Below, piece by piece: positions 15,481 to 15,780 of a DNA stretch of 64,000 nt. How positions within the stretch are numbered: position 1 is the first letter of the stretch; the number at the start of each line of letters is the position of its first letter. The notes beneath the pieces were generated by a model. That model had not been told where the DNA came from. It made no database searches and saw nothing but the letters and a program-made list of their open reading frames with translations. The translations under genes were made by a program, and so were the position numbers. Source of the DNA: Escherichia phage Antha; the sequence record PP925826.1, one strand, 5' to 3'.

Positions 15481-15780
15481 ATAGTTATTGTATGAAATGA
15501 TTACTTAGGTAATAGATAGGAAGGTAAAGGTTAGATCATAAATAGATAGGATATGAATTATTTAGTAATGTTACTTTGTGCAATAATTCAATAGATTATA
15601 GTTATAGTTTTAAAGGTTAGATAGATTATATTTAGCTTAGTAATGATTTATATTAGTTATTGTTGTTTAATATAAGGTTATCAATGAGATAGTAACAGTA
15701 AGTTATAAATAAAAGTAAGATAATTAGTTTTAATTTAGTTAGATAACTTATTATTTTATAGGTTAGATGGTCATAAGTTA
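15481..15780. repeat. C-depleted low-complexity tract with short direct repeats
   Basis: almost no C on + strand; recurring aggttagat, atagatagg, tagtaatg. Confidence 0.5.

Follow-up and report, generated by a model that had tools for sequence, protein, structure and literature searches.

What does a stretch of approximately 300 bp with almost no cytosine on one strand do beside the terminal repeat of a phage genome? The question was raised by a locus in the window, by which we mean the whole 64,000-nucleotide stretch of phage DNA that was analyzed. A preliminary description of the locus had proposed that the stretch might be a DNA-unwinding element (DUE), an iteron array or structured DNA within an origin-like or injection-control region. 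No paper on this region was found in the literature, and in the library that was searched none was found on the replication origin or the packaging signals of phi92-, phAPEC8- or rV5-like phages, which are studied as phage-therapy candidates. A 2026 review states that more is understood about cos and headful packaging than about the packaging of genomes with exact terminal repeats.

Composition, duplex stability and repeats of the tract

The feature in question was delimited as follows.

15476-15780, + strand: C-depleted non-coding tract, 3% C, 18% G and 79-80% AT

When the bases of positions 15481-15780 were counted, the + strand was found to contain 115 A, 10 C, 53 G and 122 T, compared to an average C content of 18.2% in the window. 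The next-lowest non-overlapping segment of 300 bp contained 27 C, and the binomial probability of 10 C or fewer was 3e-15. The natural limits of the tract were found at approximately 15476 and 15791, bounded by C residues at 15475 and 15792. The GC skew of +0.69 was the largest absolute value in 64 kb (mean 0.02, sd 0.18), confirming the strand-asymmetric loss of C that had been claimed for these 300 bp. The tract was also the most AT-rich 300 bp in 64 kb (80%) and, by nearest-neighbor calculation, the least stable duplex at lengths of 100, 200 and 300 bp, with approximately -1.03 kcal/mol/bp compared to a mean of -1.27 kcal/mol/bp, a distance of 4-5 sd. The separated strands showed a summed MFE of -0.092 kcal/mol/nt compared to -0.181 ± 0.038 kcal/mol/nt, less structure than in 200 of 200 random segments, as C is missing from one strand and G from the other. 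Trinucleotides containing both G and C (GTC, CTG and GCT) were almost absent from both strands, and GTT was enriched 2.5-fold on the + strand only. Deamination of C to T was rejected as the sole cause of the C loss, as T was not in excess over A in this genus.

The short repeats that had been reported were recovered. AGGTTAGAT was present in three copies, at 15528, 15614 and 15760, and ATAGATAGG and TAGTAATG in two copies each, all in one orientation and with no reverse copies. The number of repeated 9-mers was 16, compared to 3.4 ± 2.5 in dinucleotide-preserving shuffles, none of 1000 of which reached 16, and repeated 8-mers and 10-mers likewise exceeded the shuffle level. The proposal of an iteron array was not supported, since the repeats are 8-10 nt long, few, fast evolving and unalignable between genera. 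The longest multi-copy unit was a 9-mer in three copies with spacings of 86 and 146 bp, an irregular spacing that belongs to neither an iteron nor a tandem array. No set of at least three direct repeats of approximately 17-22 bp at regular spacing, as in an iteron array, was found in the tract, and TRF detected no array inside it in this window. One longer unit was defined by TRF together with an alignment of ten genomes.

15489-15504, + strand: 16-bp unit TGTATGAAATGATTAC, here in a single copy

This unit forms a variable-number repeat (VNTR) of 1 to 4.2 copies in relatives, with up to 4.2 copies in muut and KMB37, and the records of phages muut and inny list it as repeat_region. An 18-bp segment, GTTACTAACAATTTAATA, is missing here between 15579 and 15580 and was present in all nine of the other aligned genus members.

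A non-coding block at the junction of two genome ends

Matches to the 1.3 kb around the tract were found in 66 phage records and covered most of its length in 52 of these, with 92-95% identity for the best, and the taxonomy among the listed matches with a taxonomy line was Justusliebigvirus. As judged from these matches, the source phage is a phi92-like E. coli myovirus of the genus Justusliebigvirus, Stephanstirmvirinae, and the window lies in the reverse orientation of the phi92 reference. Four records (MG065639, MG065645, MG065656 and MG065689) are labeled 'Campylobacter phage' with Campylobacter jejuni as host and carry the phi92-like region at 88% identity or more; these host labels may be wrong, or the records may reflect contamination. 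The features surrounding the tract, from left to right, were the following.

14680-15022, no strand: direct terminal repeat (DTR) of 343 bp, matching the annotated right terminal repeat of phi92 at 99.1% identity

15017-15059, + strand: two tandem repeats of 21-22 bp, TAGGCTCAACAAATAGGATAT and TAGGGGTAACAAATAGGCTAT (also written GGCTCAACAAATAGG and GGGTAACAAATAGG), repeat family D8

Approximately 15164-15185: G+C-rich hairpin, left of the multi-stem element

15273-15467, + strand: conserved multi-stem element, RNA or single-stranded DNA, recognized by covariation and by a covariance-model match of 179.6 bits

15780-15798, at the right edge of the tract: Fur-box-like palindrome AAGAATGATTATCATT, with three mismatches to the E. 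coli Fur 19-mer consensus

15835-15853: second Fur-box-like palindrome

To the right of these palindromes: a segment of approximately 200 bp with conservation at the nucleotide level and no conserved frame

16067-16085, - strand: intrinsic terminator behind the last gene of the right arm, with AGGGCGC/GCGCCCT as its stem and a T-run after it

16104-16487, - strand: homolog of phi92 gp248 (T4 gp30.8-like), the last gene transcribed toward the DTR

The DTR was present once in the window, as in a collapsed assembly. Because the phi92 repeat aligned at 14680-15022, and because the BME3 record starts at the position equivalent to 14681 and its DTR is given as 342 bp in the BME3 paper, the window is, by alignment, the collapsed junction of two physical genome ends around the DTR. 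The genes left of 14680 form one physical end of the genome, and the gp248 homolog is the last gene of the other. Between the DTR and the gp248 homolog there is a block of 1.1 kb without a convincing ORF, and the - strand carries all genes on both sides of it. Protein coding near 15850-16040 was rejected, since the weak tblastn matches to three overlapping frames reflected nucleotide conservation and not a gene. The tandem repeats at 15017-15059 straddle the inner boundary of the DTR, that is, one mature genome terminus, and are a candidate cut or recognition site for the terminase; modules of GCTCAACA were found in three copies at the equivalent place in Klebsiella phage FKP3. These iteron-like repeats sit 420 bp from the tract, and the Fur-box-like palindromes abut it. 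The palindrome cluster beside which the tract had been placed was located at 15160-15460. The gp248 terminator is annotated in phage PATM and was kept in most of the related loci examined. The phage encodes a helicase-primase with Toprim and DnaB_C domains (gp4-type, DnaB-family).

The tract contained no conserved ORF in any lineage and no recognizable initiator sites. DnaA boxes were found at chance level in the window (102 compared to 103 expected), with none within the tract, and an origin dependent on DnaA boxes was rejected on this ground. Matches to sigma70-like promoters were weak, occurred at chance frequency and were not conserved between lineages on either strand. T4-late-type TATAAATA promoters were also rejected, the motif occurring 6 times in the window, with three copies on the block's + strand, compared to 8.2 expected; relatives of rV5 lack gp55/gp33 homologs according to the rV5 paper.

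A conserved structure on the + strand

A structure alignment was built from ten sequences of four lineages (Justusliebigvirus, two Phapecoctavirus groups and Klebsiella phages). The multi-stem element, approximately 180-195 nt long, had a consensus fold of 53 pairs, in which 99.8% of the cells were paired and 14 pairs showed compensatory double changes. The observed covariation was reached in none of 500 shuffles, and all slid controls collapsed. The + strand fold contained 52 G.U cells and no A.C cells. The consensus fold had -66 kcal/mol on the + strand compared to -55 kcal/mol for an independent fold of the reverse complement, and the + strand folded better than the - strand by 16-21 kcal/mol in all ten sequences. 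The excess of G.U over A.C cells and the better + strand fold in every sequence therefore identify the + strand, which is antisense to all flanking genes, as the folding strand. These results show that the + strand acts as a single strand at this position, where it alone folds, as RNA or as single-stranded DNA. The tract starts approximately 20 nt downstream of the element on the same strand.

A scan of 14000-17000 against Rfam 15 returned no family at E<=0.1, and the two matches below E=1 in that interval were to eukaryotic families, far below their gathering scores. When viral contigs were scanned for the core of the structure, only four close relatives were found. An unpaired G-run, GGGGGGG at 15396-15402, is kept in the element. 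In the BME3 record (PP239276, 146169-147371), the first 788 bp are duplicated exactly at the record end, followed by 73 bp and the terminal repeat. A second copy of the structure in BME3 was rejected as a real element because it belongs to this exact terminal duplication of the deposited record, which looks like redundancy of assembly or deposit and not biology.

Composition and polarity are conserved while the sequence is not

All 55 Justusliebigvirus records contained the tract (85-94% identity). Its length varied among them in steps of approximately 16 bp, owing to the 16-bp VNTR. In ten genomes, polymorphic columns made up 11% of the tract compared to 2% of the structured element, approximately a fivefold difference. 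Exchanges between A and G numbered 21 among the tract polymorphisms compared to 7 between T and C, and a new G was found at 11 of 139 A sites compared to a new C at 4 of 150 T sites. These figures suggest a continuing mutational bias against C in the tract, ten genomes being too few to decide.

At the equivalent position in other genera the sequence was unrelated and unalignable, but still C-poor with G kept.

Justusliebigvirus tract, + strand: A/T/G, 5-7 C per 200 nt

Klebsiella phage counterpart, + strand: T-rich, 8-10 C per 200 nt

Phapecoctavirus counterpart, + strand: T/G-rich ('GTTGTT'), 15-21 C per 200 nt

Of 14 related loci in four lineages, 12 had their local stability minimum in the tract counterpart and 2 did not, and the Phapecoctavirus counterpart was only approximately 70% AT. 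The polarity, G-poor when read toward the DTR, was kept in all four Stephanstirmvirinae lineages and was seen in rV5, of the sister subfamily, as well. Fast-evolving sequence with kept composition and polarity is as expected for an element that works through its physical properties.

In rV5, a non-coding block of 2.6 kb lies beside the mapped repeat. Its asymmetric stretch contained 5-15 G and 20-36 C per 100 nt on the sense strand of the genes reading toward the repeat, and it was not AT-rich. The rV5 paper marks an ORF-free 'non-coding' box and mentions changes of skew at it; promoters of the sigma70 type are also described in that paper. The covariance model of the structured element found no copy in the rV5 block, and the G-poor tract of rV5 was rejected as a homolog on that account and is treated as an analog only. 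Two further features were observed in the rV5 block (NC_011041, approximately 2990-3190 and 2000-2300). Approximately ten copies of CTGTTTAC/CTGTTCAC in the same orientation lie on one side of the presumed repeat, and the other side has a stretch poor in G and rich in C, whose opposite strand carries four G-runs.

Third-codon GC skew reverses at the block

The sense GC3 skew was +0.18 for the 28 genes left of the block (window 2000-14700) and -0.04 for the 18 genes right of it (16100-26400; Mann-Whitney p=2e-5). Since the genes on both sides share one strand, this difference does not come from the direction of transcription. In Phapecoctavirus ukendt, the GC3 skew was 0.13 for the genes reading away from the block compared to 0.00 for those reading toward it (p=0.009). 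Across the complete BME3 genome, the + strand carried more G than C at third positions in all four blocks between 0 and 134 kb, irrespective of gene orientation; only in the block at 135-146 kb, on the other side of the repeat, did the sign reverse. A step model for BME3 gave a position term (R=0.064) larger than the transcription term (T=0.026), with the weighted error falling from 319 to 272. On a circular or concatemer map the two skew regimes diverge at the repeat and the non-coding block, and the polarity of the tract is that of the large right-hand regime in exaggerated form.

Such a pattern is expected if forks leave the block with the + strand as the lagging-strand template rightward. 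The reversed block consists of early genes, and stronger transcription there could explain the reversal instead. AT3 skew showed no shift across the block, and the two regimes converge at approximately 134 kb of 147 kb, not opposite the block; both observations keep the early-gene transcription alternative viable.

The tract as a possible opening zone for replication

Of the readings considered, the most likely, with a probability of roughly 0.35, is that a replication-initiation region lies just inside the terminal repeat and that the tract serves it as a zone for unwinding and helicase landing. Single-stranded DNA is the loading substrate of DnaB-family helicases, which travel 5'->3' along the lagging-strand template. 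The block that separates the repeat from the last gene would open at the tract, the weakest duplex in the region, and both separated strands would stay single-stranded, as neither would form G:C hairpins. The + strand would then offer a loading track to the gp4-type, DnaB-family helicase-primase, and the fork would presumably be driven rightward into the genome. Priming would be supplied by the multi-stem element of the + strand, as a putative primer RNA or as folded single-stranded DNA, and the Fur-box-like operators would be control parts. The extreme loss of C from the + strand may in part be mutational, arising from a frequent single-stranded state.

The lowest stability in 64 kb together with the minimum in 12 of 14 loci counts for an opening zone, as do the covarying element that folds on the + strand only approximately 20 nt upstream, the GC3 reversal at the block in two genera, and the encoded helicase-primase with its Toprim and DnaB_C domains. 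The stability minimum, the structure-free strands, the adjoining strand-specific structure and the skew reversal also fit the proposal of a DUE or origin-like region in the preliminary description; DnaA boxes are not enriched. The lack of such enrichment, of initiator sites and of a conserved promoter counts against an opening zone. The same is true of the approximately 70% AT of Phapecoctavirus and the 2 of 14 loci without a local minimum, of the length of 300 bp, which is long for an unwinding element, and of the off-centre skew convergence, the early-gene content of the reversed block and the unshifted AT3 skew. The rV5 analog is strongly strand-asymmetric but not AT-rich, so selection may act on asymmetry and not on meltability.

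An AT-rich, strand-asymmetric tract beside a terminal repeat is, as a kind of element, not without precedent. The tract shares with known DUEs (the oriC 13-mers, the AT-rich region of ori-lambda and the T4 ori DUE) a stability minimum, strand asymmetry and adjoining repeated or structured elements, but no DnaA boxes or regular iterons adjoin it. These DUEs are several times shorter than the 300-bp tract. The closest parallel among those examined is that with the phiOL/phiOR segments of T7, which are secondary replication origins of that phage; the ColE1 RNA II and T4 R-loop origins resemble the proposed region more loosely. Like the tract, they are non-coding, AT-rich and C-poor on the non-template strand, and they lie near a genome end and its terminal repeat. 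In the T7 record, nt 401-450 contain 3 C and 7 G, and nt 39250-39349 contain 10 C and 20 G, both AT-rich and each immediately behind its promoter, phiOL or phiOR, near the two genome ends. The length of the T7 segments is 60-100 bp, and they directly follow a mapped promoter for the phage polymerase, whereas the tract is 300 bp long, no promoter is established here and a large structured element precedes it. From the sigma70-type promoters of the rV5 paper we infer that this phage, unlike T7 at phiOL/phiOR, uses the host RNA polymerase.

Alternative explanations

The tract could instead act on its - strand, as a Rho-loading, rut-like insulator that keeps transcription out of the terminal repeat and the concatemer junction, which we regard as rather unlikely. 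Host RNA polymerase escaping the gp248 terminator would transcribe the - strand of the tract into an untranslated, unstructured, G-poor RNA with more C than G, Rho would load on it, and transcription would terminate at the downstream hairpins. A transcription pause/termination signal has been described at the T7 concatemer junction, and the insulator would be the host-polymerase counterpart of this signal for T7 RNA polymerase. On the - strand there were 272 consecutive 78-nt windows with at most 4 G and at least 10 C, compared to 53 for the second-longest run when both strands of the 64 kb were considered. The - sense RNA had an MFE of -0.061 kcal/mol/nt compared to -0.205 ± 0.037 kcal/mol/nt, and the tract has no ORF. 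The - strand thus offers what characterizes a rut region, at least 78 nt of RNA that is unstructured, G-poor and richer in C than in G, and, as in rut regions, this RNA would come after a transcription unit and have hairpins behind it. The G-poor polarity toward the repeat in the four Stephanstirmvirinae lineages agrees with an insulator, as does the rV5 stretch, which is truly C-rich (33-36% C, 5-15% G). Set against this, the C content of the - strand of the tract is only the genome average of about 18% (17.7%) and YC dinucleotides are not enriched (8.5 compared to 9.4 per 100 nt on the whole - strand), so that in this genus the tract is neither C-rich nor YC-enriched as rut regions are. A good intrinsic terminator already precedes the tract, the neighboring structure folds on the opposite (+) strand, and the skew reversal and the extreme AT-richness are left unexplained. 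An insulator and an origin are compatible readings, as an easily melted zone that halts head-on transcription would protect an origin.

That the tract is an accessory array for packaging or concatemer processing, analogous to the SRL/SRR arrays of T7, appears improbable. In such an array, the degenerate repeats would bind, or bend around, the terminase or its accessory proteins during cutting and duplication of the repeat. Resemblance is seen in the position of the tract in unique DNA beside the DTR, on one side only, in its short repeats, which exceed chance and share one orientation, and in the iteron-like repeats on the DTR boundary itself. T7 nt 151-400, in unique DNA beside its short exact terminal repeat, are likewise non-coding, asymmetric (28 G and 71 C per 250 nt in the T7 record) and built of CCTAAAG units in the same orientation, with a matching array before the right repeat. 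The T7 arrays, however, abut the repeat on both sides with approximately 12 clear heptamer copies, whereas 454 bp separate the tract from the repeat, and its copies are few, degenerate and irregularly spaced. Moreover, it is the fastest-evolving part of the block (11% compared to 2%) and cannot be aligned between genera, unlike a protein recognition site.

It is quite improbable that the tract is a by-product, that is, a slippage-prone, decayed minisatellite of C-free units subject to strand-biased mutation and tolerated as a spacer that has no function itself. The 16-bp VNTR, the 18-bp indel within the tract, the excess of short direct repeats and the high polymorphism would all fit slippage, and the ratio of 21 to 7 between A/G and T/C exchanges is consistent with mutational bias. 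A mere by-product would not be expected at the same position and with the same polarity across genera whose tracts cannot be aligned, in genomes annotated as densely packed with genes, nor to coincide with the global extremes of stability and skew.

Very improbable, lastly, is a C-free 3' tail of a + sense non-coding RNA with the conserved structure as its 5' domain, a long untranslated transcript that the lack of C would make immune to Rho, since the + strand folding of the structure, the start of the tract approximately 20 nt after it and a + strand GC skew with the sign typical of a sense strand, opposite to that imposed by the flanking - sense genes, are met by the finding of no conserved promoter or terminator and no Rfam match, by a tail without conserved sequence or structure and by a structured element that could equally be single-stranded DNA.

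The injection-control role raised in the preliminary description looks unlikely. By analogy with T7, the genome end that carries the block probably enters the cell last, because the genes there point outward. The injection-stop signal of T5 marks the boundary of the first-transferred 8% of the genome. The T5 region resembles the block in that palindromes and repeats cluster in non-coding DNA of a phage genome with terminal repeats, but the block lies at the end whose genes point outward. We know of no two-step DNA transfer in this phage group.

Fur-box-like palindromes and the block as a whole

In addition to the two palindromes to the right of the tract, Fur-box-like sites were found at the following positions.

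14733-14751 and 14931-14949: Fur-box-like palindromes inside the DTR

26506-26600: four further sites

38449-38467: one further site

The palindrome family GAKAATGATTMTCATT had 15 matches in the window compared to 0.46 expected, and the E. coli Fur 19-mer consensus had 7 compared to 0.08 expected. Clusters of the palindromes lie in the DTR, by the right edge of the tract and within a second non-coding, AT-rich block, and similar boxes were present at equivalent places in the Phapecoctavirus and Klebsiella relatives. Either host Fur or a phage repressor could use the palindromes as operators.

The opening-zone reading could be carried further. The structure and the C-free tract would then form a new origin module based on primer RNA or folded single-stranded DNA, working mainly unidirectionally from one genome end of Stephanstirmvirinae phages and gated by host Fur via the flanking operators. 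We regard this extended proposal as a long shot; it is loosely similar in its logic to the ColE1 RNA II and T4 R-loop origins. If it were true, phage replication would respond to the iron status of the host.

The block can be described as a compact control region of five parts, namely the repeat boundary with its iteron-like repeats, the strand-specific structure, the C-free tract, the Fur-box-like operators and the terminator. Strand asymmetry changes sign at this same block, as the skew reversal shows, and the whole block with the skew reversal is of more interest than the tract alone. The delimitation of the block and the skew reversal make the question of an origin directly testable, and those who engineer these phages should leave the block intact.

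The second most AT-rich non-coding block of the window, at 26460-26860, lies inside a run of - strand genes. It carries the four Fur-box-like palindromes listed above, followed by three copies of a repeat of approximately 58 bp, GAAnTTTTCATTTTCAAAAT...AAAAACTTTAAATAA.
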